A stretch of 54,993 nucleotides of DNA, from positions 1-54,993 of the IMG/VR virus record IMGVR_UViG_2923302340_000009; one strand, 5' to 3'. Positions 21,711 through 50,254 of this stretch are shown piece after piece. A program made the position numbers and the translations under genes. How positions within the stretch are numbered: the stretch's first letter is position 1; the number at the start of each line of letters is the position of its first letter. Origin of the DNA: a virus. Taxonomy: Duplodnaviria > Heunggongvirae > Uroviricota > Caudoviricetes. The notes beneath the pieces are model-generated. The model was given only the letters and a program-made list of their open reading frames with translations, made no database searches and had not been told where the DNA came from.

Positions 21711-22424
21711 CCGGGACTGCAGTGTCTCCCGGACGTCATCCGGAAGATGGCTGTAGGGATTGCCATCCACCTTATGGCTGCCGCTGTAAATCAGCGTGAT
21801 TTCCACGCCCTGTTTCTCCAGCGCAGCACCGTAATTGCTGTGAGCCATCATGACGCCGATGGAGCCTGTCCGGGCGGTCTGCGTGACCAGACGCCGGGAG
21901 GCGGCGCTGGCAAGCAGCTGACCTGCACTGCAGTTCATGTCGTTGGCCAGCGCCCATACCGGTTTTATGTCTCGCACACGGGCGATGATGTCAGCACAGT
22001 CAAATGCTCCCGCCACCATCCCGCCCGGTGTGTCCATATCCAGCAGAATGCCGTCCACCATCGGATCGCTGGCAGCCTGTTGCAGACGGGCGATAATGCC
22101 GTTGTAACCGGTCATCCCCGAGTACGGCTGCAGCGCCCGCGTCCGGCTGACCAGCGTACCGGACACCGGCAGCACGGCGATGCCGTTCATGACCTGATAG
22201 CTGCGGGCCTGTCGTGGTCCGTCATCATCACCGGATATCGCCAGCGCCGCGGGTGCCTCTCCGGCAGTCAGGCTGTCGCCGGATACTGCATCCGTCAGGC
22301 GGCTGATCCCAAGCTGGCCTGCAAGCGCACAAAAGAAAACCCGCGCATAGGCGGGTTCAAGCATCAGCGGCTCATTAAAAGCCATGCTGGCAATATGCGG
22401 GAGATTACGCAGCTCTGCTGTCAC
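21105..22424 (-). CDS. C: head maturation protease C
   Basis: A GTG start after GAGGAGGAG gives VTAELRNLPHIASMAFNEPLMLEP..., 439 aa as in lambda C. Confidence 0.93.
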   Translation of the reverse strand: MTAELRNLPHIASMAFNEPLMLEPAYARVFFCALAGQLGISRLTDAVSGDSLTAGEAPAALAISGDDDGPRQARSYQVMNGIAVLPVSGTLVSRTRALQPYSGMTGYNGIIARLQQAASDPMVDGILLDMDTPGGMVAGAFDCADIIARVRDIKPVWALANDMNCSAGQLLASAASRRLVTQTARTGSIGVMMAHSNYGAALEKQGVEITLIYSGSHKVDGNPYSHLPDDVRETLQSRMDATRQMFAQKVSAYTGLSVQAVLDTEAAVYSGQEAIDAGLADELVNSTDAITVMRDALDARKSRLSGGRMTKETQSTTVSATASQADVTDVVPATEGENASAAQPDVNAQITAAVAAENSRIMGILNCEEAHGREEQARVLAETPGMTVETARRILAAAPQSAQARSDTALDRLMQGAPASLAAGNPASDAVNDLLNTPV

Positions 22425-23178
22425 TCTTCTCCTCCTCTGTTGATTGTCGCAGTCCGGATTCAAATGCCGCAGCCGCCCAGGCGGGCGGTTTAAGACCGGC
22501 TGCACGGCGCTCCATCGTTTCACGGACCTGCTGGGCAAAAATTTCCTGATAGTCGTCACCGCGTTTTGCGCACTCTTTCTCGTAGGTGCTCAGTCCGGCT
22601 TCTATCAGCATCACCGCTTCCTGTACTTCTTTCAGACCATCGATGGCCATACGACCGGAGCCTATCCAGTCACAGTTCCCCCAGGCACTGCGGGCTTCCT
22701 GAAAGCTGAAGCGCGCTTTTGAAGGTAACGTCACCACGCGGCGAACGATGGCCTCTTCCAGCCAGCACAGAAACATCTGGCTCGCCTGACGGGATGCGAC
22801 GAATTTTCGCCGCCCCATAAAGTACGCCCACGACTCGTTCGCGCTGGCCCGTGCCGTGGAGTAGCTCATCTGGGCGTAATTCCGGGAAAGCTGCTCATAC
22901 GAGACACCCAGCCCGGCAGCGATATACCGCAGCAGTGACTGCTCAAACACGGAGTAGCCGTTATCCGTATCCTGAGCCGTCTGCAGGTTCAGTGAGTCAC
23001 CCGGCATCAGGTGCGGCACTTTTGCGCCTCCAAGCCGGACCGGCGCTGCGGCGTAATACGCGGCAATTTCACCAATCCAGCCGGTCAGCTTGTCCCGCTG
23101 CTCCTGACTGTTCGCGCCCAGAATAAAATCCATCGCTGACTGCGTATCCAGCTCACTCTCAATGGTGGCGGCATACAT
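22405..23178 (-). pseudogene. B: portal protein B, 3' part (codons 277-533)
   Basis: MYAATIESELDTQSAMDFILGANSQEQR...EEEKSDSRAA is the C-terminal 257 aa of lambda B. It is separated from the 5' part by 10.9 kb. Confidence 0.93.
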
Positions 23179-23186
23179 CGCCTTTA
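23170..23186. repeat. island-proximal att repeat (core cata[c]atcgcctt)
   Basis: The 13-mer catacatcgcctt (23172-23184) recurs as cataaatcgcctt at 34072-34084, exactly 10,900 bp away. The extended match is 14/17. Confidence 0.85.
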
Positions 23187-23258
23187 TGAAAAGACAGGAA
23201 AAAATAAAATTTAAAAACAGTACATTACGAATGCTCAGACCTATCGTTTAAAGGAGTC

Positions 23259-23280
23259 GCAATACACACTGCAATACACG
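23259..23280 (+). repeat. two direct copies of GCAATACAC(A/G); candidate integrase arm-type sites
   Basis: The copies gcaatacaca (23259-23268) and gcaatacacg (23271-23280) lie ~80 bp from the att core. Three more copies sit at the other island end. Confidence 0.6.
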
Positions 23281-23313
23281 ATTATTTATAAGATGAGCGG
23301 CATCCGTCATAAA

Positions 23314-23552
23314 GCTGGTGGATGCTTTTTCTATGCATATATGCACAGTTTTAGTGGGCGTTAATGTCGATATAGGGATCCCCATATCGAGATTGGATAC
23401 CTGGCTTTTTTCCGGTTAACCTTTAATCAGGCTGGTGGGCTTTACCTGTTTTGTATGAGTGGTCATCATGACCATGTCATAACAAAAACCCCATATTCGT
23501 GGTTTTTCTGTGTCGGGCTATTCTGTCGTTGCTGTGCTGATTTGGCTGGTGG
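23314..23552 (+). repeat. three co-oriented Chi octamers (GCTGGTGG) in non-coding DNA
   Basis: Exact gctggtgg occurs at 23314-23321, 23431-23438 and 23545-23552. Confidence 0.9.
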
Positions 23553-23620
23553 GCTGAATCATCATTACGGCGATGCAGCTATGTAGACGTTCCGGCCTCC
23601 TCAAATTGAGGATTGTGGAA

Positions 23621-23769
23621 GAATCAATGGGTTAGTCTTACTTTCCCGACATCCCCCAATGGGGGTTTTCGAAACAATCAATAGCTTAGGCTTACTTCCC
23701 CGATTTCCTGCATTGCAGGTTTTCGAAATAATCAATGGGTTAGGCCATCGTGCAATTTTGCACTTTGCC
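23621..23769 (+). repeat. tandem units (54, 54 and ~41 bp), each an AATCAATRGSTTAG box plus a short GC hairpin and T-run
   Basis: Unit A (23621-23674) and unit B (23675-23728) are 42/54 identical. The hairpin cccccaatggggg in A becomes cctgcattgcagg in B through paired substitutions. The third unit carries gtgcaattttgcac. Confidence 0.75.
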
Positions 23770-23954
23770 AGCCAGCGCAATGTCGCGTTATCAGTCCTCA
23801 GATGTGAGGGATGTAGCCAGCTTTTCCCCCAGTGGGGGATATCCAGCACCGACGGCTTAACTGTGCGTGCCAGCACAAGGTAGCCTTGAACTACTTACTG
23901 CATCCCATCTTACAGGCCGTGCCTTCCTGCTTAACTTTTTGCAATGCAACAAGT

Positions 23955-23978
23955 CAGCCAGCGCAATTTTGCGTTATC
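23955..23978 (+). repeat. 24-bp direct repeat cagccagcgcaatNtNgcgttatc (second copy)
   Basis: The first copy lies at 23769-23792 and matches 22/24. It contains the small palindrome cgcaa-tt-ttgcg. Confidence 0.7.
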
Positions 23979-23993
23979 GGGAATATCAGCAAG

Positions 23994-24275
23994 TTACCGC
24001 CGCAATCGTTCCGGCTTCTTCCACTGGTAAGTATTTTTCGCGCTCTCCCTCCGTTGTTGAGAAAGGCGACGATATGCCAGCAACTCAAGGACTCTTGTTC
24101 GTATGTTGCGCATATCCACGCCGTTAAGCTCAATACCGTCACGGCGCATCACCTCAGCCACTACACGCACATAATTATCTGCGGTCACGCTGTCCGGCTG
24201 CGTGGCCTGTTCGTCATGCTGCTTGCTGATTCCACAAGCACGGCGGATTAATCGCAGTATTTCGGATTCAGTCAT
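23994..24275 (-). CDS. hypothetical basic protein downstream of the island small terminase
   Basis: 93-aa ORF, 12 nt after the terS-like stop. No family recognised. Confidence 0.5.
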   Translation of the reverse strand: MTESEILRLIRRACGISKQHDEQATQPDSVTADNYVRVVAEVMRRDGIELNGVDMRNIRTRVLELLAYRRLSQQRRESAKNTYQWKKPERLRR

Positions 24276-24286
24276 AGCGTACTACG

Positions 24287-24829
24287 TTACTTATCTTTAT
24301 TCGGCTGCAACTTATCCGGTACGTTTCCGGCAGTTTCCATCAGATAATCGGACAGCATCAGCGGTATGTTTTCGTCAAGTTTTGCGCATGCGTTACAGGC
24401 TCTGATAACTTCTTTTTTCAGTCCATCCAGCATAGACGGCTTCATGTCGGGAAACTTCCTTGTCATGGCAAGCGGCAGGCTGTCCATGATTGAAGAAATC
24501 TGACTCGCCAATTTTGAAAGCACGTATATACAAAACGCTGTATCAATAACGTCGCCGCGTTCGCGCTCGTTTTTAAGCTCCTGCGCCTCTGCCTGTGCTG
24601 TCAGCAATCTGATCCTGACTCGTAGGAGTTCATCATCATCAATCTCGCCTTTGTCGTCTGTAATCTGGTTAATTGCATTGCTAACCCGATTGTCTATTAC
24701 GCTGGCAACATCATAAAACGCCTCGCGGCCTTTACGTTCAACGGGAGTCACTCCCCACTTGTCGAACGCTGTCGCACTTACACGGCAGCTTTGCGCCATG
24801 TTTTTTTTGTTCATCAGGTGCGATTTCAT
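24287..24829 (-). CDS. small terminase subunit, Nu1-like (island-encoded)
   Basis: The C-terminal half (AQAEAQELKNERERGDVIDTAFCIYVLSKLASQISSIMDSLPLAMTRKFP...) aligns with Nu1 in this same window (AQADAQELKNARDSAEVVETAFCTFVLSRIAGEIASILDGIPLSVQRRFP...). The N-terminal wHTH part is diverged. The start at 24829 follows a GGGGA RBS; the ORF track starts at a GTG at 24841. Confidence 0.85.
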   Translation of the reverse strand: MKSHLMNKKNMAQSCRVSATAFDKWGVTPVERKGREAFYDVASVIDNRVSNAINQITDDKGEIDDDELLRVRIRLLTAQAEAQELKNERERGDVIDTAFCIYVLSKLASQISSIMDSLPLAMTRKFPDMKPSMLDGLKKEVIRACNACAKLDENIPLMLSDYLMETAGNVPDKLQPNKDK

Positions 24830-24841
24830 CAATATCCCCAC

Positions 24842-25030
24842 TTAAGTAATGTTTCAGGTTGGTGTATTGACTTTATCTTTTCCTTTTTATTCATAGAGAT
24901 AGAGCGAACAACAAAACCACCACCAGCACCCGAAAAAGGCTCATAAATAGCGAAAACCCGCGAGGTCGCCGCCCCGTAGCCTACCGGATCACCGGAAAGG
25001 ACCCGCCAGCCAGAGCGGGCCCTAATTTCA
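24842..25030 (-). promoter_or_regulatory. island cos site (cosQ-cosN-cosB); cosN 12-mer at 24963-24974
   Basis: Positions 24941-25012 are 64/72 identical to the prophage cos (37706-37777). cosN on the coding strand reads GGGCGGCGACCT, the canonical lambda cohesive end. The cosB side toward terS is unrelated to lambda. Confidence 0.85.
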
Positions 25031-25414
25031 TCAACCAATCAGCTTATAGCGACCATCCCGTGCATTGCGGCGTACACGCTCAATCTTGAGGCATAGCGCC
25101 GCATCTGGCTTTTTTGGGACAGGTACGCGGCAATATTCAGAAGCGCGAGGAATATTATTTATCCAGTCGATCACTTCACTTAAATACCAGGCCTTACGCC
25201 CTTCCGTAACCTGCACACGCTCCGGGAACTCTCCACTAGCCTCAAGGTTTAGCAGTGTACGACGACTCAGGGTTGTAATTTCCATCACCTGATTCATATC
25301 AACAAGGCGCTCGCTTAAACACATTTTGTCAGCGATAGCTTTTAATTCCTCTACAGCTGGATTCGGGTACATCATTTCGGCAATTGGCTTAAGGTCATTG
25401 TAATCATTCTGCAT
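25031..25414 (-). CDS. AlpA/MerR-type HTH protein (island late region)
   Basis: 127 aa. The central segment LVDMNQVMEITTLSRRTLLNLEASGEFPERVQVTEGRKAWYLSEVIDWI fits the AlpA-family HTH pattern. Confidence 0.65.
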   Translation of the reverse strand: MQNDYNDLKPIAEMMYPNPAVEELKAIADKMCLSERLVDMNQVMEITTLSRRTLLNLEASGEFPERVQVTEGRKAWYLSEVIDWINNIPRASEYCRVPVPKKPDAALCLKIERVRRNARDGRYKLIG

Positions 25415-25425
25415 TGTATCCCCCT

Positions 25426-25767
25426 TTACACACGAGCCAGCGGCTGAACAGAAATACCTGAGCCAACAAACGCTGCAACCTTTACTGACAGTTCTTTAAC
25501 AGACTCAGGCCAGTTCAGAGCATCAACATTTAAGACACCTGTCTTATAGACCTGAGCCTGTGTTTTTTTCGCGGTGTCGATTTGTACAGCGGAAACATAA
25601 ACCGCTTTACCTACGCTCGAACCATCCCATACCACCAGTGCACCTGTTGCATCTTCCTGCATCAGTGGCGTAAATGCAGGAATTACCCCTTTATTAGCTG
25701 AAAATATCCCCAGCGTAGTCACCAGTGCTTCAGTGCCAGCCATGAGTTCAGTGTAATGAGTAGCCAT
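25426..25767 (-). CDS. head decoration protein D homologue (island-encoded)
   Basis: 113 aa with a strong RBS. It shares the D pattern TPLM..D....LV.WDG....AV...YK.G......L.WPE......AF.G..ISV with the helper D at 20763-21095. Confidence 0.75.
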   Translation of the reverse strand: MATHYTELMAGTEALVTTLGIFSANKGVIPAFTPLMQEDATGALVVWDGSSVGKAVYVSAVQIDTAKKTQAQVYKTGVLNVDALNWPESVKELSVKVAAFVGSGISVQPLARV

Positions 25768-25776
25768 TGCTCCCCC

Positions 25777-26823
25777 TTAGCCAATGCGAACGGTAACAAA
25801 ACGATTGATGCGGGCCGGTATTGGCTGTGGTGCTGAATGTGTCTGCACATATTCAATAGCCGGATCACCAGGCACAATATAGTTTTTCGGTGCAAGTTCG
25901 GCTTTAGTCAGCCCCATTCGGATTAGCTCCGGATCCTGAATACCGCCATAGGCGACAATCCCCTGAAGAGCCGTATTGCCAAGCACCATCAAATCAGGAT
26001 CAAGGAAATGTTTTTCTGTTCCGTCCTCGTCGGTATAACGCCCGCTGTAAACAACAATCGCAACATCGCCCATATACCCTTTAAAACTCACCGAATCACC
26101 AAGGTCTTTAAGGGCCGTTTCCAGTTCGGAATTAGAACCACGACGGGTATCCAAAGCCTCTTTTATCGCTCTGAATGAACGGTATTTCTTCCATACATTA
26201 CCACCCATAATGATGATATTAGTGACGCCCTCACTAAATTCTGCGTAGCTCTCAATATCATCATTTGGATCAAAAGTTTCTTTATCCTTACCTGACCACT
26301 CAGTACCGCCAGACTGAGTGATGATATTTTGTGGTTTTATATTCCAGTCCAGCTCATAACGTTCAATACCATCGCCCTCAATGATATTTTTCCCCGTTGT
26401 GATTGCCTGAACAGCAAGCCATTCAATACGTGCACGAATAGCTTTAGCCTGATTTACAATCGCCTGTTTAACTTTAATATTACGCGCCCCAAAAGCATTG
26501 TATTGCTCAGGTGACACACCAGCAGGGCGCACAGCTAACTTATTTGGATCAATGCTGCTTTTCGGCTTCATATAACCTGGACGAATTGTTTTTGATTCGT
26601 ATCCCTCATCTCGTGAAACTTTACTGCCCACCATAGGAGAGCAAAACGCCGCGATCGGGATATTTGGATCGTCGATCGTATCAAGAATAATGTCTCTCGA
26701 TTCAAACATTACCGAGCGAGTGAAAAACAAACTGGTAAACAACGCATTTAATTTTTTTTGCACATCTTCAGCATTAGCCACCTGCACAAGCTGTGTAGGC
26801 GAATATAAATCAACCATACTCAT
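25777..26823 (-). CDS. major capsid protein E homologue (island-encoded)
   Basis: MSMVDLYSPTQL... compares with lambda MSMYTTAQLL. A long collinear similarity includes GGTEWSGKDKETFDPNDDIESYA...DTRRGSNSELETALKDLGDSVSFKGYMGDVAIVVYSG against the helper E. The start could be 26823 or 26817. Confidence 0.88.
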   Translation of the reverse strand: MSMVDLYSPTQLVQVANAEDVQKKLNALFTSLFFTRSVMFESRDIILDTIDDPNIPIAAFCSPMVGSKVSRDEGYESKTIRPGYMKPKSSIDPNKLAVRPAGVSPEQYNAFGARNIKVKQAIVNQAKAIRARIEWLAVQAITTGKNIIEGDGIERYELDWNIKPQNIITQSGGTEWSGKDKETFDPNDDIESYAEFSEGVTNIIIMGGNVWKKYRSFRAIKEALDTRRGSNSELETALKDLGDSVSFKGYMGDVAIVVYSGRYTDEDGTEKHFLDPDLMVLGNTALQGIVAYGGIQDPELIRMGLTKAELAPKNYIVPGDPAIEYVQTHSAPQPIPARINRFVTVRIG

Positions 26824-26988
26824 CCTCTTTACATTCATTACAAATAATTGTGAATATATTCTATTACCGATGTCTGCTATGCGAACACATGCAACCAAGT
26901 GCAATGTTGTATAAAATATGCCGTAACAACTTCAGTGCTGATAATTCGTGTTAATGTATTTACTTCCTTTGGTCGGGATTTATGTAGC

Positions 26989-27017
26989 ATGCCGGAAAAT
27001 CTATTTTTTTCCGGCAT
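26989..27017. other. 11-bp-arm hairpin (atgccggaaaa-N7-ttttccggcat) between the ssb and capsid genes
   Basis: Read directly. A T-rich run follows on the plus strand only, so its role as a terminator of the minus-strand operon is uncertain. Confidence 0.5.
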
Positions 27018-27034
27018 CTTTTTGTTTGCAGAAT

Positions 27035-27457
27035 TTAAAACGGTATATTATCGCCGTACGGATCATCATTCCCCGACTGTTGTTTTGCCCTGTTCAGTGC
27101 GTCAGTGGCCTGCCCCTGCTGGCCTTTTTTGCCGCCCGGTCGCGCCGTTCGCGCACTGATTACGCTGTCTGCGATAACCTGCCAGCCCCGCCGCGTTTCG
27201 CCGTTCTGGCCTGTCCACTGGCTTACCTGCATGTTACCCGCCACGCTCACCAGTTCGCCTTTGTGGTGTTTTGCCAGTGCGTCGGCCTGTCTGCCAAACG
27301 CCAGGACGGATAACCACATCGTCGCCGTTCCGTCATCTGCCTGGCTGCACGGCAGGGGAACCGCCATACTCGCCATCGCCATTTGTGTCCCTTTGCTGGT
27401 GGTCTTTAACTGCGGGTCAGCCACCAGCCGCCCGTAAGCCGCTATCTGTGCTGTCAT
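27035..27457 (-). CDS. ssb: single-stranded DNA-binding protein
   Basis: 140 aa with an OB-fold-like N-terminus, a Gly/Gln-rich linker and the acidic SSB tail ...DDPYGDNIPF. Confidence 0.8.
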   Translation of the reverse strand: MTAQIAAYGRLVADPQLKTTSKGTQMAMASMAVPLPCSQADDGTATMWLSVLAFGRQADALAKHHKGELVSVAGNMQVSQWTGQNGETRRGWQVIADSVISARTARPGGKKGQQGQATDALNRAKQQSGNDDPYGDNIPF

Positions 27458-27705
27458 GCTGTCTGCTCTCCGGTTTTAACATTGATGGTTGTCACCTGTT
27501 CCGCTTCGGCAATCTCCCGTTCTGTCAGCGTGGCAAAGTTTGCCGCTGCTGTGGTCATAAATGCGCTTATCAGGTCGGGATGTTCCTTCGCGTATCCTGC
27601 CCGTGTGTGGTGGTCTATCGCTTTGATTGCCACCTTTAAGGAAAGCTCTGTCATGTCTAACGCTTTATATTTTGCCTGTGTTCTGTCTCTGCGAATTTTG
27701 GTCAT
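27454..27705 (-). CDS. hypothetical protein
   Basis: The ORF overlaps the ssb start (ATGA). The likely start is MTKIRRDRTQAKYK at 27705; the tracked ORF extends to 27768. Confidence 0.5.
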   Translation of the reverse strand: MTKIRRDRTQAKYKALDMTELSLKVAIKAIDHHTRAGYAKEHPDLISAFMTTAAANFATLTEREIAEAEQVTTINVKTGEQTA

Positions 27706-27818
27706 TTGTCGCCCCTGATTCATGTTTTCGGCTGGCATGTTTGTTAAGTGATTTTTATGTATGCGCATTTATTTTCACCCCCCCTCGTTTAAAAAGTTTT
27801 TAGTTGTGCCTCCCCCCC

Positions 27819-28037
27819 TCTACCCATCTACCCGAATGCTCATCATGTCAGTAATGGCGCCGCTTTCAGCGGGTAGATAGCTTTTTTGACTCCTCTACCT
27901 GCCGTCTACCCTGCTACCTGAAACTGATAAAATCAGGTAGAAGAGGTAGAGAGCTTTTATTAGCCTTCTACCTAGCCCTATATCCACTTATCATGTTGAA
28001 TAATATGCATTTATTTCGTTCAGGTAGATGGGGTAGA
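27819..28037. repeat. island replication origin: at least 10 TCTACC/GGTAGA iterons flanking an AT-rich core
   Basis: tctacc occurs at 27819, 27827, 27894, 27905 and 27967. ggtaga occurs at 27872, 27936, 27945, 28023 and 28032. The AT-rich stretch at 27975-28020 lies immediately downstream of the primase-helicase gene. Confidence 0.8.
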
Positions 28038-28053
28038 TGGCTTTTACAAAAAA

Positions 28054-29808
28054 TTATAAAAACGCGTCGCAATCGTCTGTTGTAATTGCGTTGGTCTGCG
28101 TTACTCCCTTAACTTTTCGCGTAATATATTCATGCCCGTAAACTTTCGCCGCTGGCTTCATGGCCTTGCTGAACTCAGCCACGTTTAGCGGTTTGCTCCT
28201 GCCCGCGTATGCCATAAACGCCAGATAGACGCGGTAAAGGCTGTTCCTGGTCGTGTACTTCACTGAATCACCACCGCCACCCATCATCAGGCCGCGCGCT
28301 TCCTCCAGAAAATTCAGGAACTGGCAAAACTCAATAACCGGATCCGTCTGTTGCTTTATTGCCAGTGCTTCATCACCGTCACGCTGTTCCAGTAGTAAAG
28401 CCCGTGCCTTCTCAGGGTCGGTAAAGTTCGCCAGCAATCGGCGGATAATAACGGGGATTTCAGCCGCAATCTTTTCCGGTAGCTCCCTGTCTTTTTCGGC
28501 CTCACTGACGATATTGTCGAAACGGAAAATCACGCGACGACGTGCCACACCTCCGGCCCGTTCGGTGAATATCATCGGGTTGTTGTTGGTCGCCAGCACC
28601 ACCGCCCTGATTACCGCCGTGAAACGCTTTTCATATTTCGGGTTAATTTCCACGGGGTCGCCGCCTGTGATTTTCTTGATGCCCGTTCCTTCGCCTGTAT
28701 ATTTCGGCTGGTCAGCCAGGACGATAAGACGACTCCCGACAACCTGCGCACGTCCACCAGCATCATCAAGCGATGTCATTTCAGCGCTTACCGTGTTCTG
28801 TTTCCCTGCCAGAAGGCTGGCTATGTGTGTGAATGTACTTTTACCGCTCCCGCCGTCTCCGGTGGCCTCAATAAACATCTGCCAGTCGTACCGGTTCGCC
28901 ATAATCATGTACAGCGCGGCACATATACGCATCATCTTGCGCGGGTCTTTTCCGGCTGCGTGCTCAAGCCATTTATGAAAGTTTGGCGCGTTATCGCGGA
29001 TGTTCTCCCCTGGTGCTGGTGGCGTGTACTCAATGCCGTTGTGCGTGGTGATCCAGTTCTCCGGCGTGTGCGGGGAAAATTCCCCCGTTTTCAGGTCAAG
29101 CGCACCATTGGCGAACGGCAGCAAATCGCCAGACGGCTCGCCCATTGGTTCGGCAATAACTTTTAACGCTTCCACGGCGTTATTGATTACGCGCTTGCTG
29201 AAAGTGGCCCTGTGCTCTGAATAGATCGCCACCATTTCGCGGCTAAGTTCCATTGTGCTGACCGGACACCATACCCCGCCGCGCCATACGTGAACGATTT
29301 CACTTTCAGGATGTACGCAAACGCCATCAAAGCGATCGGCAAGCAACTGCGCGCGCTCACTGTCCGCCATCTGCGAAAGTTGCGCCTTTTGCTTTACCGG
29401 AAGCTCAATGACCAGACCATCAGAAAGATTCTGGCGTTCACGGGCCAGATATTCGCGCCAGGTCTGCACCTCCTGGCCGTGCATACCCTCAGGATAAAAA
29501 TTTGCATCCTGTACGCCTGCTGCCGCCAGCTTCTGACCAATCGCCTTTATCATTACAGGCGCAAGATATCCGGCCCTGTATATGCGTGCTGATTTTCGGC
29601 CTTCCGGCACAATTTGCAGATTATCCAGTTCGGATAGCTGCTGCTCCCCAAGCCACACAGGAGGCTCATTATCTCCGGCCATACGCGCATCATGTTCCTG
29701 CCATTGTTTCGCGTGTGCCCAGGCATCACTACCCGCAAAAATAATTACTTCTGTTCCTTTGTGTTTTATGCCGCGTGACTGCTGTTTTACGTTCGGTGCC
29801 AGTTTCAT
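28054..29808 (-). CDS. primase / SF3-helicase replication protein (P4-alpha / D5-like)
   Basis: 584 aa with a Walker A motif EATGDGGSGKSTF and a central phage/plasmid-primase-like region. It is adjacent to the iterons. Confidence 0.8.
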   Translation of the reverse strand: MKLAPNVKQQSRGIKHKGTEVIIFAGSDAWAHAKQWQEHDARMAGDNEPPVWLGEQQLSELDNLQIVPEGRKSARIYRAGYLAPVMIKAIGQKLAAAGVQDANFYPEGMHGQEVQTWREYLARERQNLSDGLVIELPVKQKAQLSQMADSERAQLLADRFDGVCVHPESEIVHVWRGGVWCPVSTMELSREMVAIYSEHRATFSKRVINNAVEALKVIAEPMGEPSGDLLPFANGALDLKTGEFSPHTPENWITTHNGIEYTPPAPGENIRDNAPNFHKWLEHAAGKDPRKMMRICAALYMIMANRYDWQMFIEATGDGGSGKSTFTHIASLLAGKQNTVSAEMTSLDDAGGRAQVVGSRLIVLADQPKYTGEGTGIKKITGGDPVEINPKYEKRFTAVIRAVVLATNNNPMIFTERAGGVARRRVIFRFDNIVSEAEKDRELPEKIAAEIPVIIRRLLANFTDPEKARALLLEQRDGDEALAIKQQTDPVIEFCQFLNFLEEARGLMMGGGGDSVKYTTRNSLYRVYLAFMAYAGRSKPLNVAEFSKAMKPAAKVYGHEYITRKVKGVTQTNAITTDDCDAFL

Positions 29809-30104
29809 TTTTTACCTCTGAATCCGTTAATCATGGTTTTCATTTTCTGGATATTTCCCCACGCTTTTTCCCTGCTGATGGGCTTACTGCGGGGTGCGGC
29901 ATATACCAGGGAAAAATCACGCCGGAACTGATAAACAGGCATCACGCAGTCATAGCTATACCCCTCACGGCGGTAAGTGATGCGCCGTTCTGCCACGCCT
30001 TTAATCGTTACCGTGCCGCCGTATTTATCGCGGTAAATATCGCCGTTCATAAATTCAGGTCGAGCGGGGCCGCTGGCAATAAAGCCAGAATTTTTCATTT
30101 CCAT
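29805..30104 (-). CDS. DUF4222-like small protein
   Basis: 99 aa. The motif GDIYRDKYGGTVTIKGVAERRITYRREGYSYDCVMPVYQFRRDF resembles DUF4222 proteins. Family recalled from memory. Confidence 0.5.
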   Translation of the reverse strand: MEMKNSGFIASGPARPEFMNGDIYRDKYGGTVTIKGVAERRITYRREGYSYDCVMPVYQFRRDFSLVYAAPRSKPISREKAWGNIQKMKTMINGFRGKK

Positions 30105-30121
30105 ATTATTTATTCCTCGAC

Positions 30122-30343
30122 TTAACTCGACTTATTTGATAGCAGGGCACTATTTATTGCGTCATTGAGTTTTTCTGCTGATTCATCAATAAGTGACAAC
30201 AGGCCATAAGCAATATTTGCATCTTCATTGTCATTTATGCAATCAAGCCACATATTTAATATTGCTTTTGCTGAATTATTTAAAGTTAATGAACTTTCTG
30301 CACATGCTAACAATTTAAAAAAGACTTCCCGTTCTGTATTCAT
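30122..30343 (-). CDS. hypothetical protein
   Basis: 73-aa ORF in the operon, low GC. Confidence 0.45.
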   Translation of the reverse strand: MNTEREVFFKLLACAESSLTLNNSAKAILNMWLDCINDNEDANIAYGLLSLIDESAEKLNDAINSALLSNKSS

Positions 30344-30535
30344 TTAATCCCCCACCAGCTTACTTTCTTCCTCAATCAAAAAACTAGCGACACTTCCCGA
30401 AAGACGCGCCAGTAGGCTCGCCAGTGCGGATATATCAGCATCTGTAATTTTGTTCGGGTATACCTCAAGAAGGCGGCAAATAATTTCTGTCTGGTGCGCA
30501 CGTTCAGCGGCTTCGTGTAATGTAATTTCCTGCAT
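30344..30535 (-). CDS. hypothetical protein
   Basis: 63-aa ORF abutting its neighbours, which suggests coupling. Confidence 0.45.
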   Translation of the reverse strand: MQEITLHEAAERAHQTEIICRLLEVYPNKITDADISALASLLARLSGSVASFLIEEESKLVGD

Positions 30536-30720
30536 TAATGCACCTCTTTTAATTCATACACTGCTGAAATAATGACTTGTGATAAGCCATATTCTGATGA
30601 TTCGCTTCTCACCGCAGCAATAGCCGTCTGAACATTAACAGCCTTCACATTCTGAGCGATACCAATTGTGTGGCCTATTGGGTTAACAGCTCGGGCAAAT
30701 ACACGGAAGGTTTTAAGCAT
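30535..30720 (-). CDS. hypothetical protein
   Basis: 61-aa ORF. Its start overlaps the stop of the upstream gene (ATGCTTAA). Confidence 0.45.
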   Translation of the reverse strand: MLKTFRVFARAVNPIGHTIGIAQNVKAVNVQTAIAAVRSESSEYGLSQVIISAVYELKEVH

Positions 30721-30910
30721 GACTCACTCCCTGGCGGATTTTTGCAGCGAATACAGCAACACAACCGGACGGGCAACGGCTACGCGCTTCGCGTTCCGTC
30801 CAGGCGGTTACGTGGATGATTTGAGATTCTCCGGCACTCAGTGCCAGAAAACGCCACACAAAGGCCGTTTGTGTGTGTACAAGGTGTGGTATATGATTTA
30901 CAGCAACCAT
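30713..30910 (-). CDS. Icd-like small protein (cell-division-inhibitor-like family of P1/P4-type elements)
   Basis: 65 aa, MVAVNHIPHLVHTQTAFVWRFLALSAGESQIIHVTAWTEREARSRCPSGCVAVFAAKIRQG, with an AGGAG RBS. It is the only credible part of the 356-aa tracked ORF. Family recalled from memory. Confidence 0.45.
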   Translation of the reverse strand: MVAVNHIPHLVHTQTAFVWRFLALSAGESQIIHVTAWTEREARSRCPSGCVAVFAAKIRQGVSHA

Positions 30911-30939
30911 AACGGCTCCTAGTTTACGTTGTTGGTTAG

Positions 30940-30973
30940 ACGCCCCGTATGTGTTCCCAGCACTGCGGGGCGT
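30940..30973. other. 8-bp-stem hairpin (acgccccg-N18-cggggcgt) in the leader of the island early operon
   Basis: Read directly. It lies between the operator repeats and the Icd-like start, so it is a candidate leader or antisense RNA element. Confidence 0.45.
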
Positions 30974-31001
30974 TGCTCTTTGTATTTCAACAATCCTTTC
31001 G

Positions 31002-31079
31002 GTGTGTTTCATGTTATGAGCGCATGAAACACACGTCAAGGCTTTTTGTATTTCTTTTTTTGTGTATACTGAAACACAC
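31002..31079. promoter_or_regulatory. operator-like repeats in the divergent control region
   Basis: A perfect 12-bp inverted repeat gtgtgtttcatg (31002-31013) / catgaaacacac (31023-31034) is present. A third half-site tgaaacacac lies at 31070-31079, just upstream of the RHH-like gene. Confidence 0.65.
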
Positions 31080-31100
31080 CGATGATTAGGAGTTTCAGAA

Positions 31101-31406
31101 ATGGCAACGGCTAACAAAAACGCAAAATCACAACTGACAACTGTCAGAGTCCCACTAGATGTTATGCAAGGGATGGAATCCGTTAAGCTGGACGGTGAAA
31201 GCAATGCCGGATTTATCGTAACCGCCATGCGCGGAGAAATAGCCCGCCGCCAAGCAGAAGGCAGCGGAGAAAATCCCCTTGTGTCGTCACTGGATGCCCT
31301 GGCTAAGGTCGAACAAATCGGCATCAAAGCAGCCGAGGAGATCGGGCAACTCGTCACCGTCGCGCGTGAAGAACTCCAGCGACGCAAGGTCAAAGAGCAT
31401 GAATAG
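31101..31406 (+). CDS. putative ribbon-helix-helix regulator (candidate island repressor)
   Basis: 101 aa with an AGGAG RBS. The N-terminus QLTTVRVPLDVMQGMESVKL...GFIVTAMRGEIARRQ fits a beta-strand plus two helices. It is divergent from the replication operon. Confidence 0.45.
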   Translation: MATANKNAKSQLTTVRVPLDVMQGMESVKLDGESNAGFIVTAMRGEIARRQAEGSGENPLVSSLDALAKVEQIGIKAAEEIGQLVTVAREELQRRKVKEHE

Positions 31407-31463
31407 CCAATATCAGCGCCATAGTTTGAGGAACGCAGGCGCATTGCTTTACAGGACAGCACC

Positions 31464-31643
31464 ATGAGCGACACAGAATCAACCAAAACACCATCACCAA
31501 CTCGTAAGAGACGACGCAAAAATATAGCGCATGAACATGAATCAGAAAGATTCGCACCTTGTTCGTTTGCTCTTGAGAAATTCCTTAAAGAGCACAGGAA
31601 AAAGCTCTCGTTGCAAACCTTGGAACGAACCAAATCTGACTGA
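31464..31643 (+). CDS. possible 59-aa basic protein
   Basis: ATG at 31464 with AGGA 7 nt upstream. It encodes MSDTESTKTPSPTRKRRRKN... and is followed by a terminator. It falls below the ORF-track cutoff. Confidence 0.35.
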   Translation: MSDTESTKTPSPTRKRRRKNIAHEHESERFAPCSFALEKFLKEHRKKLSLQTLERTKSD

Positions 31644-31709
31644 TCACATTGCCCACCAGCCGCAAATGTGGCATTGTTGGTGATGCTTTTGTTTTCCCTT
31701 GTTCCCACT

Positions 31710-31739
31710 GGCGACCCTTTTGCGGTCGCCTTTGTTTTG
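31710..31739 (+). terminator. rho-independent terminator
   Basis: The hairpin ggcgacc-cttttgc-ggtcgcc is followed by tttgttttg. Confidence 0.75.
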
Positions 31740-32318
31740 TCACTGAATGCGGTTACCAAAGTAAAACTCAGGCTGATATTCACGTATCAGCGTTTTTTCT
31801 TCTTCCTCCAGCTCACGCTTTTTGCGCTTACATGCCTGTAGCTCCCTCCCCTTCTCGCTGGCACTTATTTGATATTGCTCTTTACGGCGGGAAAAATCCT
31901 GTAATGCACCCCACGGGATACCATAAGTCCCCGTTTTTCTGATACCTGGTATCACATTTCTGAATACCCAGTTACTGAAACGATGAGCAAATGTGCCAGG
32001 CGTCGTTGCTTTGCGGCTGCGGGCTATTAGTTTGTAGAAACCTGACTCAGAGATAATTCTCATATTCTGATTTCCTCCTGGGGTGTAAGTTAAATTTACT
32101 CCCTTTTCATCATCATCAAGCATCTGCAACGCCGTACGCGAATTGGTTAGTTCCAGCGCAGCACAAACATCTTTTGCAACAAACCACGGATCGCCGTTCA
32201 GATACACCACACGAACGTTCACACTATCAAAGCGCAGAACGACGAGATCACGAATATCGCAGAATTTTTTCACTGGACGAGCGTACCCCTTGCCCGTCAC
32301 GGCAATATTTTTATTCAT
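31740..32318 (-). CDS. Bro-N domain protein (antirepressor-like)
   Basis: 192 aa. VRVVYLNGDPWFVAKDVCAALELTNSRTALQMLDDDEKG...ISESGFYKLIARSRK matches the Bro-N pattern. Confidence 0.75.
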   Translation of the reverse strand: MNKNIAVTGKGYARPVKKFCDIRDLVVLRFDSVNVRVVYLNGDPWFVAKDVCAALELTNSRTALQMLDDDEKGVNLTYTPGGNQNMRIISESGFYKLIARSRKATTPGTFAHRFSNWVFRNVIPGIRKTGTYGIPWGALQDFSRRKEQYQISASEKGRELQACKRKKRELEEEEKTLIREYQPEFYFGNRIQ

Positions 32319-32338
32319 CGCGTTTTTACCTTATAGAC

Positions 32339-32361
32339 AAAAAACCCCTCGTGATGAGGGG
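32339..32361 (-). terminator. rho-independent terminator between the alpA-like and bro-like genes
   Basis: The coding strand reads gcccctc-atcac-gaggggtttttt. Confidence 0.7.
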
Positions 32362-32374
32362 CATTATTTACTGG

Positions 32375-32632
32375 TTATTGCTGTTTTGTTTTTCCAGGTT
32401 TCCATCCAGGATGCCACTCACCACGGATCCATGCCTGAACCTCTGAAAGTCGATACCCTGCAGCACGTTCACCGATCTTGATACGTCGCGGGAATTTACC
32501 TGCCTGCTCCATTTTCCAGCGTGTTGAGTTTGCCAGCGTGGTAAGTGCTATGCACTCTTTTTCACGAATGAACCGATCAATGTCCTTCATTGTGCGCAAA
32601 TCGTTTTCATCAACAAGAGAATAAATTGCCAT
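32375..32632 (-). CDS. alpA: AlpA-family transcriptional regulator / excisionase-like
   Basis: 85 aa. FIREKECIALTTLANSTRWKMEQAGKFPRRIKIGERAAGYRLSEVQAWI is the AlpA pattern. It lies immediately downstream of int. Confidence 0.85.
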   Translation of the reverse strand: MAIYSLVDENDLRTMKDIDRFIREKECIALTTLANSTRWKMEQAGKFPRRIKIGERAAGYRLSEVQAWIRGEWHPGWKPGKTKQQ

Positions 32633-32633
32633 A

Positions 32634-33875
32634 TCACACCACCTCTTTATTAAGCTCGATAACGTTGTTGTTAAATCCTGCTATCGTATTAAGGTAATTA
32701 ACCCACATATTAAGCACCTCAAGTTTTTTCTTTATATGCCTGCTTTTATTGTAAACACCAGCAACCCCTTTCACTTTATGACCTAAAAGAAGTTCGACAA
32801 TATAAGGATCCGCCCCCATATCATTAAGCGTAGTGGAAAATGTGCGCCTGAAATCATGTATGCACCACAAGCCATTAGTATCATGACCAAGACGCCTGCA
32901 TATTCTGTTTGCAGCCCCTGTTATTGTCGCCCTTTGCAAAGCACAACCGACAACATAACCGCGATTTTTTGTTTCTGCGTAAAGATTAACGATCCATTGT
33001 TTTATTCCGTCAGGAACAGGCCTTACTATAGCCTCCTTGTTTTTGCTGTGCTCTTTTGGGACTGTCCATACCCAGTTTTTTAAATCCCATTCGTCCCAGG
33101 TGGATAGCCTCGCCTCCTGCTGTCGGCAACCAAACACCAGGCAGATAACCATTATTCTTCGGTTATATATTGATGACAGAGTTAGCAAATTATTACCGTA
33201 AGCATAAGACCATACATCAGCGGTTTCATTGATATTAAGAACGCGATCCCTTATACCGGATGAGCGCCCGACATAACTTACGTTAATATCTCCAAAGGGA
33301 TCGCACGCGATGTATTGCCTGACGCGACAAAAACGCAACGCCTGTTTGATATCAAGAAAAATTGCACCAGACATAACAGGCGCATTTTTTTTGATCCTGT
33401 CAAAGACGGTAAGCCATGTGTGTAATTTGCACTGTTCTATAGCCATATCACCGATATAGGGGAAGATATGCTTTTCAAATCGTTTTATTAAATATTCATG
33501 CTCTTTTCTGGCTGTTGTGGCGTGATTGTCGTACCAGTAAAACAGCGCATCCCTTACGGTCACTGGTTGCATAGTTTTTTCGGCAGCAAGTTTTATTTGC
33601 CTGCGGGGGTCCAGATTTTCAGCCAGCCATTCACGGCACTGATCACGCATGCGCCTGGCCGTTGCAAGAGACATGTCAGGATAGCGACCAAGTGTAAGCC
33701 ATACCGGAGGGAATTCCCTGCCACCAAGACGATAGTAAAAAACAAAGCTGATCCCCCCAACCATGCTTACACGCACAGACAACCCGCGCCCATCCGCTAT
33801 TGTTTTTTGTTTGTCCTGCCGTTTTCCGACAAGACTCTTTAACAGTTTGTCACTGAGTTTGTTTTCAATAGCCAT
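32634..33875 (-). CDS. int: tyrosine integrase, P4-type
   Basis: 413 aa with an N-terminal DUF4102-like arm-binding part and the catalytic motifs HDFRRT, LLGH and a C-terminal Tyr region. It is adjacent to the att repeat. Confidence 0.92.
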   Translation of the reverse strand: MAIENKLSDKLLKSLVGKRQDKQKTIADGRGLSVRVSMVGGISFVFYYRLGGREFPPVWLTLGRYPDMSLATARRMRDQCREWLAENLDPRRQIKLAAEKTMQPVTVRDALFYWYDNHATTARKEHEYLIKRFEKHIFPYIGDMAIEQCKLHTWLTVFDRIKKNAPVMSGAIFLDIKQALRFCRVRQYIACDPFGDINVSYVGRSSGIRDRVLNINETADVWSYAYGNNLLTLSSIYNRRIMVICLVFGCRQQEARLSTWDEWDLKNWVWTVPKEHSKNKEAIVRPVPDGIKQWIVNLYAETKNRGYVVGCALQRATITGAANRICRRLGHDTNGLWCIHDFRRTFSTTLNDMGADPYIVELLLGHKVKGVAGVYNKSRHIKKKLEVLNMWVNYLNTIAGFNNNVIELNKEVV

Positions 33876-33895
33876 TAAAAGCCCTCAAGAGATTT

Positions 33896-33947
33896 GCAAT
33901 ACACACCCATCCCGATCGCCAATTTGCAATACACATTGCAATACACA
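33896..33947 (+). repeat. three direct copies of GCAATACACA; candidate integrase arm-type sites
   Basis: The copies lie at 33896-33905, 33926-33935 and 33938-33947, in the same orientation as the two copies at 23259-23280. Confidence 0.6.
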
Positions 33948-34023
33948 AAACCGCGAAAAACTGGAAGGGTGATGAACGGTCATCAAAAGCATGGAAAACG
34001 ACATTCCAGACGCAGCAAGGGTT

Positions 34024-37004
<2,981 letters not shown>

Positions 37005-37030
<26 letters not shown>

Positions 37031-37550
37031 TCAGCAACCCCGGTATCAGTTCATCCAGCGCGGCTGCTTTGTTCATGGCTTTGATGATATCCCGTTTCAG
37101 GAAATCAACATGTCGGTTTTCCAGTTCCGGAAAACGCCGCTGCACCGACAGGGGGATCCCGTCGAGAATACTGGCAATTTCACCTGCGATCCGCGACAGC
37201 ACGAAAGTACAGAATGCAGTTTCCACCACTTCAGCGGAGTCTCTGGCATTTTTCAGCTCCTGTGCGTCGGCCTGCGCACGCGTAAGTCGATGGCGTTCGT
37301 ACTCAATAGTCCCTGGCTGGAGATCTGCCTCGCTGGCCTGTCGCAGTTCTTCAACCTCCCGGCGCAGCTTTTCGTTCTCAATTTCAGCATCCCTTTCGGC
37401 ATACCATTTTATGACGGCGGCAGAGTCATAAAGCACCTCATTACCCTTCCCACCGCCTCGCAGAACGGGCATTCCCTGCTCCTGCCAGTTCTGAATGGTA
37501 CGGATACTCGCGCCGAAAATGTCAGCCAGCTGCTTTTTGTTGACTTCCAT
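37005..37550 (-). CDS. Nu1: terminase small subunit Nu1
   Basis: 181 aa, MEVNKKQLADIFGASIRTIQNWQEQGMPV, matching lambda Nu1. Confidence 0.97.
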
Positions 37551-37790
37551 TGTTCATTCCACGGACAAAAACAGAGAAAGGAAACGACAGAGGCCAAAAA
37601 GCCCGTTTTCAGCACCTGTCGCTTCCTTTCTTTTCAGGGGGTATTTTAAATAAAAACATTAAGTTACGGCGAAGAAGAACGGAAACGCCTTAAACCGGAA
37701 AATTTTCATAAATAGCGAAAACCCGCGCGCCTTCCGCCCCGTAGCCTGCCGGATCGCCGGAAAGGACCCGCCAGCCATTCGGGTTTACTT
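37551..37790 (-). promoter_or_regulatory. prophage cos (cosB-cosN-cosQ); cosN 12-mer at 37728-37739
   Basis: The cosB and cosQ flanks match my recollection of lambda almost base for base. The coding-strand cosN reads GGGCGGAAGGCG instead of GGGCGGCGACCT. Confidence 0.85.
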
Positions 37791-38131
37791 CACAATGGGA
37801 TTTAATATCTGAACGACCAAAGTCGTGCGGCCACGGTCGCACAGACCTGAATACACGTCCTGTTTCTTCCACCCCCGCACAGGACTGGCGAGCATGAGGG
37901 ACAAACCCGCGAATCATAAACGCGGTAAAAACCCGGTGTGCATCGTTTTTGATTATTCCCGCACACTCGCGCAGAAGGAATTCCCCGTCGGGCTACGGTC
38001 ATGGTTAATGCGGGAATACGGCGACGATACAGCGCATAATGTGTCAGGCTTGAATACCTTTATCGAATCCCGGTAACGAATTCTCCTGACGTTCCAGTCA
38101 GGTGATGATATGCATGGTGAGATTCAGATAT

Positions 38132-38156
38132 GAAAAAGCCCCGCTAAAAGCGAGGC
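38132..38156 (-). terminator. rho-independent terminator after the post-Rz ORF
   Basis: The coding strand reads gcctcgc-tttta-gcggggc followed by ttttt. Confidence 0.65.
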
Positions 38157-38174
38157 CATAAATCACTTAATATC

Positions 38175-38549
38175 TTATTGAGGACGCTGGAGTAATCCGT
38201 GCTGAGCGAGAGTTAGAGCAATGTCATAAGACCCTTGCCTGTCTTTATAGCAAGTTTTATCAACTAGCTCAGCTTTGCTAATTCCGGGTAAATCAAGAAT
38301 CAGATTCGCAACTTCAATTGCCCTTTGGTACAACTTACCGATCTTTTTCTCCCCATGATGTGGTTTTACATTCTTCAGATAACCGCTATCCGCCAGAGCG
38401 AGAAACGTTGCCCTTGGGCATCCCTTCTTTCTTGCCGATTCGCTTTCTGTAACCTCAGCGACAGCAGCATCCCATGCATCACGCGGGGATATTGAATTAT
38501 CAGCAACCAAATAATAAGCAATTAAAGCGGCGCGCGCGTATTGAGACAT
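38175..38549 (-). CDS. hypothetical protein (moron between Rz and cos)
   Basis: 124 aa from the ATG at 38549 (MSQYARAALIAYYLVADNS...). It occupies the slot where lambda carries bor. No family recognised. Confidence 0.55.
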   Translation of the reverse strand: MSQYARAALIAYYLVADNSISPRDAWDAAVAEVTESESARKKGCPRATFLALADSGYLKNVKPHHGEKKIGKLYQRAIEVANLILDLPGISKAELVDKTCYKDRQGSYDIALTLAQHGLLQRPQ

Positions 38550-38587
38550 AATGCATCCATATACAAAAATCTTATGATAAGACTTTT

Positions 38588-39031
38588 CTAATATGAACAC
38601 TGTGATCTCACATACTCTTGCAGGCCATTCAATTGGTTAGTTATGGTTTCGATGCGCTCTCTGAGAACGAAATAATCCCGTTGAGCGGTGTCAGTAAGTC
38701 TGGGGCTGGAAGCATCATCCACGCCGGAGGCGGCGGTGGTTTTATGCATGTCGGGACAGACTGCTTTGACGTGCAGCCACTTACGACCAGCAGAAACATC
38801 AGCACGAAGACTTTCGATAGTCGCGTTAGCATCAGCAAGCTCCTTTGTATATCTGGCATCGAGTTCAGCTACATTACGTTGACGTTTCTGCATGTCAGCG
38901 ATAATGGATGCGGCCTTATCGCGCTGTTCTTTGTAGGCGATGGCGTTATCACGGTAATGATTAACAGCCCATGACAGGCAGGCGATGATACAAATAACCA
39001 GAGCGGAGATAATCGCAGTTACTCTGCTCAT
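38588..39031 (-). CDS. Rz: i-spanin Rz
   Basis: 147 aa with an N-terminal TM segment and a coiled coil. An Rz1 frame is embedded. Confidence 0.9.
38641..38832 (-). CDS. Rz1: o-spanin Rz1 (lipoprotein, embedded in Rz)
   Basis: [33 protein letters not shown] has a lipobox LVVSGC and a proline-rich region as in lambda Rz1. Confidence 0.85.
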
Positions 39032-50249: not shown

Positions 50250-50254
50250 AACGG

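Follow-up and report, generated by a model that had tools for sequence, protein, structure and literature searches.

Enrichment of the Chi octamer in a satellite-like island of a lambda-like prophage and in its Escherichia coli relatives

The island, its genes and its Chi octamers

The window analyzed here, a 54,993-nucleotide stretch of viral DNA (positions 1 to 54,993 of the IMG/VR record IMGVR_UViG_2923302340_000009), consists of a lambda-like prophage whose genes lie on the minus strand and whose portal gene is split by an island of 10.9 kb. This island is rich in GCTGGTGG, the Chi octamer of Escherichia coli. Exact searches of both strands find 12 copies of the octamer in the window, 10 of them within the island, whereas dinucleotide shuffles of the window contain 2.2 +/- 1.5 copies and none of 100 shuffles reaches 12. 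The two copies outside the island, at 39283 and 41830, are both on the minus strand in the right-hand part of the prophage. The same search finds no Chi in 1-23178 and 34084-39282, which leaves the head and tail genes without a copy, and none in the genes for the portal fragment, W, A and Nu1 (34084-37550). An earlier, sequence-only reading of the window had counted ten island copies by eye and had described the lambda-like late genes as devoid of Chi. All ten of its positions and strands are exact, and its description of the late genes is correct for the two intervals above, the copies at 39283 and 41830 having gone unmentioned. The major features of the window are:

23185-34083 (approximate limits), minus strand: satellite island, recognized from Pfam and PHROGs hits, RefSeq annotation and direct repeats
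24963-24974, minus strand: island cosN, GGGCGGCGACCT, identical to that of lambda, with a lambda-like cosQ side and a different cosB
27800-28050, no strand assigned: putative replication origin, with an AT-rich stretch surrounded by about 12 GGTAGA/TCTACC iterons, immediately downstream of the primase gene
49953-51717, plus strand: gam-bet-exo genes of the prophage (Pfam: Gam, E = 2e-64; RecT, 3e-33; YqaJ, 4e-30)

The Chi octamers of the island are located as follows:

23314-23321, plus strand: first Chi of a triple cluster, within a terminator-like hairpin (23299-23326), in its loop and 3' stem
23431-23438, plus strand: second Chi of the triple, within a conserved block, TTAATCAG-Chi-GnTTTACCTGTT
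23545-23552, plus strand: third Chi of the triple; the Chi of relatives is 11 nt off, in another local sequence, GTGCTGGTGGATATT
24920-24927, minus strand: Chi inside the island cosB at a distance of 43 bp from cosN; a top-strand site in the lambda-standard orientation
27395-27428, both strands: back-to-back pair (27395, plus; 27421, minus) in the SSB gene, about 400 bp from the origin
28754-28761, minus strand: Chi in the primase gene, on the coding strand (codons GCT GGT GG)
29015-29022, plus strand: Chi in the primase gene, on the template strand (codons CCA CCA GC)
30352-30359, minus strand: Chi in a gene of 63 amino acids with no assigned function, on the coding strand (..G CTG GTG G)
31653-31660, minus strand: intergenic Chi, between a YlcI/YnfO-like gene and the BRO gene

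A direct repeat, CATAnATCGCCTT, is present at both island junctions (23173-23184 and 34072-34083), and the two halves of the portal gene (22405-23178 and 34072-34905) are annotated in RefSeq as pseudogene fragments. The island genes, which like the portal gene are all on the minus strand and therefore co-oriented with it, run from int through genes for AlpA, BRO, an Icd-like protein, several small open reading frames (ORFs), DUF4222, a D5/P4-type primase and SSB to those for a lambda E-like capsid protein, a D-like decoration protein, AlpA again and a Nu1-like small terminase subunit (terS), followed by a 93-amino-acid ORF and a non-coding tail. The Pfam hits are to integrase, AlpA, Bro-N, D5_N/DUF5906 primase, SSB, Phage_cap_E, HDPD and Nu1. 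The cosN is directly upstream of terS, and, judged from its anatomy, the iteron region is the probable origin of island replication. Segments of 52 complete E. coli chromosomes are 99.5-99.9% identical to the island and have the same portal junctions, so the island has a host with a RecBCD that reads this octamer.

Based on its portal insertion, its gene zones and its cos, the island is classified from sequence as a helper-embedded satellite of the phage-inducible chromosomal island (PICI) type. Helper-embedded satellites are inserted into late genes of lambdoid helpers, among them A, B, C and E, and point in the same direction as these genes (bioRxiv 10.1101/2022.07.18.500453); the island shares with them the insertion in late gene B (portal) and the co-orientation in a lambdoid prophage. 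The same int/AlpA, Bro, replication and late zones and a cos are found in the satellites of Tommasini, Mageeney and Williams and in the Gram-negative PICIs (bioRxiv 10.1101/2022.07.18.500453; Fillol-Salom 2019, PMC6739421). Because the satellite is located inside the portal gene, the cognate of lambda B, excision of the island is required before the helper can produce portal protein.

Enrichment of Chi in the island and its family

The island has 0.92 Chi per kb, compared with 0.22 per kb in E. coli K-12, where there are 1008 sites in 4.6 Mb (PMC12315714). At the K-12 density 2.4 copies would be expected in the island instead of the 10 observed (Poisson P = 1.7e-4), and the probability of three copies within 239 bp is 2e-5. 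With 2 copies in 44 kb of prophage, the overload that the sequence-only reading had attributed to the island is borne out by counts per kb in island, prophage and host. Chi is the commonest octamer of the island (10 copies; 7 for the runner-up). Furthermore, 10 of the 12 GCTGGTG heptamers and 10 of the 11 CTGGTGG heptamers in the island are parts of full Chi sites, which indicates that the enriched word is exactly the octamer. A longer motif around it was considered and rejected, as the flanking bases are variable in both the island and its family.

The intergenic DNA of the island (2.35 kb) contains 5 copies against 0.05 expected from base composition, while the coding DNA contains 5 against 0.35 expected from synonymous-codon shuffles, none of 3000 of which reaches 5. 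The coding copies (two in the SSB gene, two in the primase gene and one in the 63-amino-acid ORF) are found in three frame offsets and on both strands. Together the expectation by chance is about 0.4 (0.35 coding plus 0.05 non-coding), close to the figure of about 0.3 given previously. The G+C content of the island, 47%, is below that of the host. Codon or amino-acid usage is rejected as the cause, given the 5 coding copies and the 5 more that are non-coding, and the shuffles, composition and density together indicate that neither codon usage nor composition nor host-like amelioration explains the excess. The enrichment of Chi is real and specific to the octamer.

Relatives of the island were collected as 80 further loci from IMG/VR, through alignment of the conserved 93-amino-acid protein, and by searches of E. 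coli genomes; de-duplication gave 31 island variants (304 kb), whose counts are not phylogenetically independent. Two scans of species-representative genomes found no locus with terS and one locus with the 93-amino-acid protein. The 31 relatives contain 287 Chi, 157 on the top strand and 130 on the bottom strand, which corresponds to 0.94 per kb or 4.3 times the K-12 density; the next octamer has 126 copies. The DNA beyond the family islands contains 15 Chi in 75 kb (0.20 per kb), and flank densities overall are 0.20-0.30 per kb. Within the islands, density is about 1.1 per kb in the integration, Bro and replication zones and about 0.33 per kb in the captured late genes, from the capsid gene to the 93-amino-acid ORF; Chi-poor late genes are consistent with their recent capture from Chi-free helpers. 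Diverged islands of the family at other chromosomal sites are all Chi-dense:

ETEC4091 island, at clpS/cspD: 1.23 Chi per kb, own flanks 0.55 per kb
Nissle 1917 island, beside tRNA-Pro: 1.12 Chi per kb, own flanks 0.45 per kb
O157:H7 strain 9234 island, at phoQ/roxA: 1.06 Chi per kb, own flanks 0.14 per kb
Ec-2939 island, at tRNA-Ile/nfeF: 0.73 Chi per kb, own flanks 0.15 per kb
EDL933 island (a capsid-forming PICI), at phoQ: 0.84 Chi per kb, own flanks 0.18 per kb

Chi enrichment is thus a trait of the whole family. Such a density might have arisen without any selection, either by inheritance from Chi-rich ancestors or by residence in the chromosome, through amelioration or through mutational or gene-conversion bias. 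Inactive prophages are expected to gain Chi like the chromosome around them (PMC12315714), and many family members share homologous Chi positions. Amelioration, however, cannot overshoot the host, and the islands exceed not only K-12 but also their own flanks, by 3-5 times, at a lower G+C content. Non-coding DNA, with next to no copies expected, contains half of them, and the intact int, primase, capsid and terS genes, together with the near-identical copies in 52 genomes, show that the islands are not decaying remnants. We therefore regard an origin without selection as very improbable.

The non-coding tail and the orientation of Chi relative to cos

The three co-oriented Chi between 23314 and 23552, which the sequence-only reading had placed in DNA free of credible ORFs, are indeed in non-coding DNA, as 23185-23600 has no ORF longer than 45 amino acids and RefSeq annotates no coding sequence there in a copy that is 99.9% identical. 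They are part of an 809-bp tail that extends from the last gene of the island to the att site, are 130-370 bp from the att core and adjoin repeats of the motif TGCAATACAC, of which there are two copies on one side of the att core and three on the other (23258-23281 and 33895-33945). These repeats contain GCAATACA, which ranks second in frequency among the octamers of the island; they are probably arm-type sites of the integrase, a 'doubled motif' being mentioned for this integrase clade. A tandem duplication was rejected as the origin of the triple: Tandem Repeats Finder (TRF) detects only a neighboring 54-nt array. The three sites share at most 2-5 flanking bases beyond the octamer.

The hairpin that contains the first Chi is followed by TTTTT on the plus strand. 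The flank context of this Chi recurs in 15 unique tails, and variants that keep the hairpin are found in others; some islands retain a hairpin at this Chi but have another stem sequence, GTTATCTGTCATCAA-Chi-ATGATCACAGATAAA. At the second Chi all 8 columns are identical in 24 non-identical relatives, and the flanks are equally conserved. At the place of the third, the window reads GTGCTGATTTGGCTGGTGGGCT, while the ETEC4091 and Nissle islands read GTGCTGGTGGATATT, so that Chi is present in both although the positions are not homologous. That different lineages carry Chi at almost coinciding but non-homologous places indicates repeated gain, or retention, of the octamer itself.

Among the family tails (800 bp each) there are 49 Chi in 24 kb, or 2.0 per kb, which is 9 times the host density. 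The 49 sites form 17 flank clusters with at least 12 unrelated sequence contexts. Thirty-three are oriented like the triple of the window and 16 oppositely (binomial P = 0.02), while the mainly coding part of the islands has the reverse bias, 141 versus 97 (Fisher P = 8e-4, uncorrected for shared ancestry). Since the genes are all co-oriented and Chi is easier to encode on the sense strand, we infer from this strand bias that the non-coding tail may supply the Chi orientation that coding DNA under-provides. The window is at the extreme of the family distribution with its three co-oriented tail copies; most variants have one or two.

The octamers of the triple could also be incidental to other conserved elements near attP, such as arm or regulatory sites, a terminator hairpin or an RNA, in which case the cluster would have no role with RecBCD. 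The fully conserved flanks of the second Chi, the recurrence of the terminator-like hairpin with a different stem sequence and the closeness of the cluster to the att core and the TGCAATACAC repeats are all in keeping with this explanation. Against it are the many unrelated contexts and non-homologous positions of tail Chi across lineages, the ninefold density of the tails, the rank of Chi as top word also in the coding part of the island and the lack of both an Rfam match and an extended motif around the octamer. It appears to us quite improbable. A search of the tail against Rfam finds no RNA family, even at E = 1.

The neighboring array (23592-23753, and 23825-23843) comprises three tandem 54-nt units, each a hairpin, whose stems differ yet stay paired (CCTCCTC/GAGGA, CCCCC/GGGGG and CCTGC/GCAGG) and are each followed by a constant TTTTCGAAAnAATCAATGGGTTAGG. 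The O157, Nissle and EDL933 islands have similar units in their tails; the array has no Rfam match and a fold z-score of -3.15. Possible roles are terminators against incoming plus-strand transcription, protein-binding sites or an RNA.

RecBCD reads 5'-GCTGGTGG-3' when it approaches from the 3' side, and the active sites of lambda are on the top strand, with the enzyme entering at the right cos end (PMC12315714). The triple, on the plus strand, is readable by RecBCD that starts at the cos cut at 24974 and moves from high to low coordinates, passing terS on its way to att, and its nearest Chi is 1.41 kb from the terS-proximal cos end. Both the active orientation and the distance of about 1.4 kb proposed in the sequence-only reading are therefore correct. 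From the right cos end the first readable Chi is that at 27421, 2.45 kb in, followed by those at 28754, 30352 and 31653, and the 2.4 kb beside that end contain no Chi. Whichever end and direction is considered, a readable Chi is met within at most about 5 kb. A clean rule of orientation relative to cos or to the origin was rejected for the family, as the profile alternates and independent sites are few. Also rejected was a cluster that guards a rolling-circle tail from an adjacent origin, the iteron-type origin being at 27800-28050, outside the tail. The Chi on either side of this origin face outward; they are few and shared by descent, and no conclusion is drawn from them.

With readable copies on both sides, Chi facing outward near the cos ends might save injected linear DNA in the recipient cell before circularization, which was the emphasis of the sequence-only reading; a side effect would be that fewer RecBCD fragments feed the acquisition of spacers by CRISPR systems, a link between RecBCD, Chi and spacer acquisition being mentioned in PMC8791490, and any role in donor concatemers would be secondary. 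A newly infected cell lacks helper Gam, so this stage is exposed whichever helper is used, and the stretch bracketed by the three Chi 1.4 kb from the left end and the first Chi 2.45 kb from the right end includes attP, int and the replicon. If the DNA were resected as far as the first Chi, however, the satellite would already lose its cos, terS and capsid genes and be capable of neither cos circularization nor intact integration, and Chi helps only if a homologous partner is present. In addition, Chi is distributed over the whole island rather than concentrated at its ends, the late zone by cos having only 0.33 per kb. We consider such a shield at the recipient stage to be an unlikely explanation. 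More generally, protection alone cannot restore degraded ends, and recombination that is stimulated by Chi and yields packageable concatemers is at least as probable a benefit.

The Chi at 24920-24927 is found in cosB where lambda has its R3 terminase-binding site, on the strand that is unreadable for RecBCD entering at that end. The ETEC4091 island has a Chi at the same 43-bp offset from cosN, and a top-strand Chi falls in this bin in 11 of the 31 family variants. The similarity of the satellite terS (24287-24829) to Nu1 is confined to the C-terminal part of the latter (Pfam positions 80-162), and the N-terminus of terS is unrelated, a pattern that fits a protein predicted to bind the large terminase of the helper yet to recognize the cosB of the satellite. 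The cosN position of the resident prophage (37728-37739, minus strand) reads GGGCGGAAGGCG, with lambda-like cosQ and cosB flanks, whereas strain 20Y000092, whose locus is otherwise 99.9% identical, has a helper cosN that is exactly that of lambda (L001 position 20630). Judging from these sites, either the helper and the satellite in the window would have different cohesive ends or the helper cos would be defective.

A proposed role of host RecBCD, and comparison with known systems

The island proteins have no match to Gam, Abc, RecT, Erf or an exonuclease in Pfam or PHROGs, so the earlier description of the island as lacking gam holds for recognizable Gam, recombinase and exonuclease domains and leaves room for six uncharacterized small proteins. 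The surrounding prophage encodes Gam (49953-50249), Bet of the RecT family and Exo of the YqaJ family, and its 2 Chi in 44 kb compare with 9.6 expected at the host density (P = 0.004). This deficit is an active avoidance of Chi of the kind described in the literature on lambdoid phages: those with both a recombination module and a RecBCD inhibitor are mostly Chi-free, while those without are Chi-rich (PMC12315714; PMC3784561). Of 325 lambdoid genomes, 72 lack a recombination module (PMC12315714). A Chi-rich island without gam inside a Chi-poor prophage with gam thus places both halves of the published dichotomy side by side.

Starting from the observed enrichment, its specificity, its recurrence in the family, the absence of recognizable rec and gam genes and the orientation and distance of Chi relative to cos, we propose, with a probability of about 0.6, that the satellite lineage exploits host RecBCD rather than inhibiting it, through attenuation of the enzyme and RecA-dependent recombination. 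Every functional step of this mechanism is one that we infer. The lineage would have been selected for about 1 Chi per kb in both orientations, mostly on the top strand in coding DNA and mostly on the bottom strand in the tail. Wherever the satellite is present as linear or tailed DNA, such as rolling-circle or concatemer ends, cos-cleavage ends or broken forks, RecBCD would enter at the free end and meet a correctly oriented Chi within about 5 kb or less, usually 1.4-2.5 kb from a cos end. At Chi, degradation would give way to the loading of RecA; the concatemer would be preserved, and recombination between copies would provide a multimeric, cos-to-cos substrate for a lambda-type terminase. 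If recognition at a single site is assumed to have a chance of 0.3, three Chi in a row would raise it from about 0.3 to about 0.66. The island would then correspond, among satellites, to lambda red gam chi+ and to the lambdoid phages that are Chi-rich and lack the module.

Several observations weigh against this proposal. The resident helper encodes Gam, so RecBCD should be inhibited during induction, when the satellite replicates, and it is not evident why Chi would be needed here; the benefit would then be with Gam-less helpers, before Gam accumulates or in the recipient cell. The six small proteins without assigned function could hide an anti-RecBCD activity, and the island also encodes an SSB. 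In the lambda-standard orientation the triple, a bottom-strand cluster, faces the left end, and the left cos end of lambda is described as staying bound by terminase during packaging (Kobayashi 1982, as cited in PMC12315714). The strands of island Chi are balanced, 5 top and 5 bottom, and favor neither cos end; they are nearly balanced in the family (157/130), and there is no clustering towards the right end, unlike in published Chi-rich phages. The flanks of the second Chi are as conserved as the octamer, and the first Chi is in a hairpin that is kept with other stems, so these copies could be conserved for another reason. The shared ancestry of the family variants also bears on all the family counts. 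The earlier suggestion that Chi serves the island instead of an anti-RecBCD protein therefore agrees with the published lambdoid logic (PMC3784561; PMC12315714) and fits less well with the Gam of the helper and the left-facing triple.

If Chi takes the place of an inhibitor, the satellite would work with both Gam-plus and Gam-less helpers, which would explain its independence from the Gam status of its helper, and would avoid host defenses that sense the inhibition of RecBCD. A broader suggestion, which we put forward tentatively and regard as doubtful, is that the PICI-type satellites of E. coli, both helper-embedded and capsid-forming, are the most Chi-dense mobile elements known in this species and depend on RecBCD and RecA for replication or packaging, the tail by attP being an evolved 'Chi cassette'. 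Should the rule hold for satellites, RecBCD would be a host factor for the spread of PICIs and, hence, of their virulence and defense genes. The enrichment is shared by the Nissle 1917 and EDL933 islands, so the idea is open to testing in established systems, and it may also be relevant to engineered PICI 'drones' and to the stability of linear DNA in E. coli. Neither bioRxiv 10.1101/2022.07.18.500453 nor PMC6739421 mentions Chi or RecBCD, and our survey of the literature, which was not exhaustive, found no work that links Chi or RecBCD to PICIs or other satellites.

The closest known systems are the Chi-rich lambdoid phages without the module, first noted by Bobay, Touchon and Rocha in 2013 (PMC3784561), and among them the LLS class A phages (Zheng, Casjens, Davidson, Amundsen and Smith, Genome Res 2025, PMC12315714). 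Like the island, LLS class A phages belong to E. coli, use lambda-type cos packaging, have no recognizable Gam or recombinase and have Chi as top octamer at a density above that of the host that codon use does not explain; their Gam/Red-bearing relatives are nearly Chi-free, as is the prophage in which the island is embedded. LLS also grows better with RecBCD (PMC12315714). The island, however, is about twice as dense (1 Chi per 1.09 kb versus 1 per 1.86 kb in LLS), and the Chi of LLS are 20 top and 3 bottom and clustered towards the right end, whereas those of the island are evenly split without such clustering. Moreover, the island is a 10.9-kb satellite with half of its sites in non-coding DNA, a Chi-rich tail and a main cluster that faces the left cos end. 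It probably works like the LLS class but is not assigned to it, as it lacks the top-strand bias towards the right end.

The mechanism proposed for the island is that of lambda red gam chi+. According to the studies cited in PMC12315714 (Lam 1974; Henderson and Weil 1975; Kobayashi 1982), packageable multimers in the absence of Gam and Red require RecA-RecBCD recombination stimulated by Chi, and Chi is active in only one orientation relative to the cos end at which RecBCD enters. As described there, one mutational Chi in one orientation suffices for lambda, whereas the island has ten natural sites in both orientations, known by sequence. Phage P1, with 50 Chi in 94.8 kb (1 per 1.9 kb), needs RecBCD (PMC12315714). 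It resembles the island as proposed here in being a Chi-dense mobile element with Chi as top octamer and in growing by means of host RecBCD-RecA, and differs from it in its headful packaging, its circularization by recombination between terminal repeats and its overall biology and size. In engineered rolling-circle plasmids, oriented Chi reportedly stops RecBCD on linear multimers and lets these accumulate (Dabert, Ehrlich and Gruss 1992; Kuzminov 1994). The protection of these plasmids resembles the proposal for the island, whose rolling-circle tails are putative. The rule that elements without a recombination module are Chi-rich is here extended from lambdoid phages and P1 to a satellite family, whose unusual traits are a density of about 1 per kb, balanced strands and a Chi-rich tail.

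Satellite P4 (NC_001609) is, like the island, a cos-packaged satellite of E. coli, similar in size and related in primase and integrase type; unlike the island, it has no Chi in its 11.6 kb. If the proposal is correct, Chi density would be a sequence marker that separates satellites in need of concatemers, such as the lambda-cos PICIs with about 1 Chi per kb, from satellites that manage without them, such as P4. P4 is packaged as monomeric circles by the terminase of P2 and so needs no concatemers, and its lack of Chi fits the role proposed for Chi in the island.

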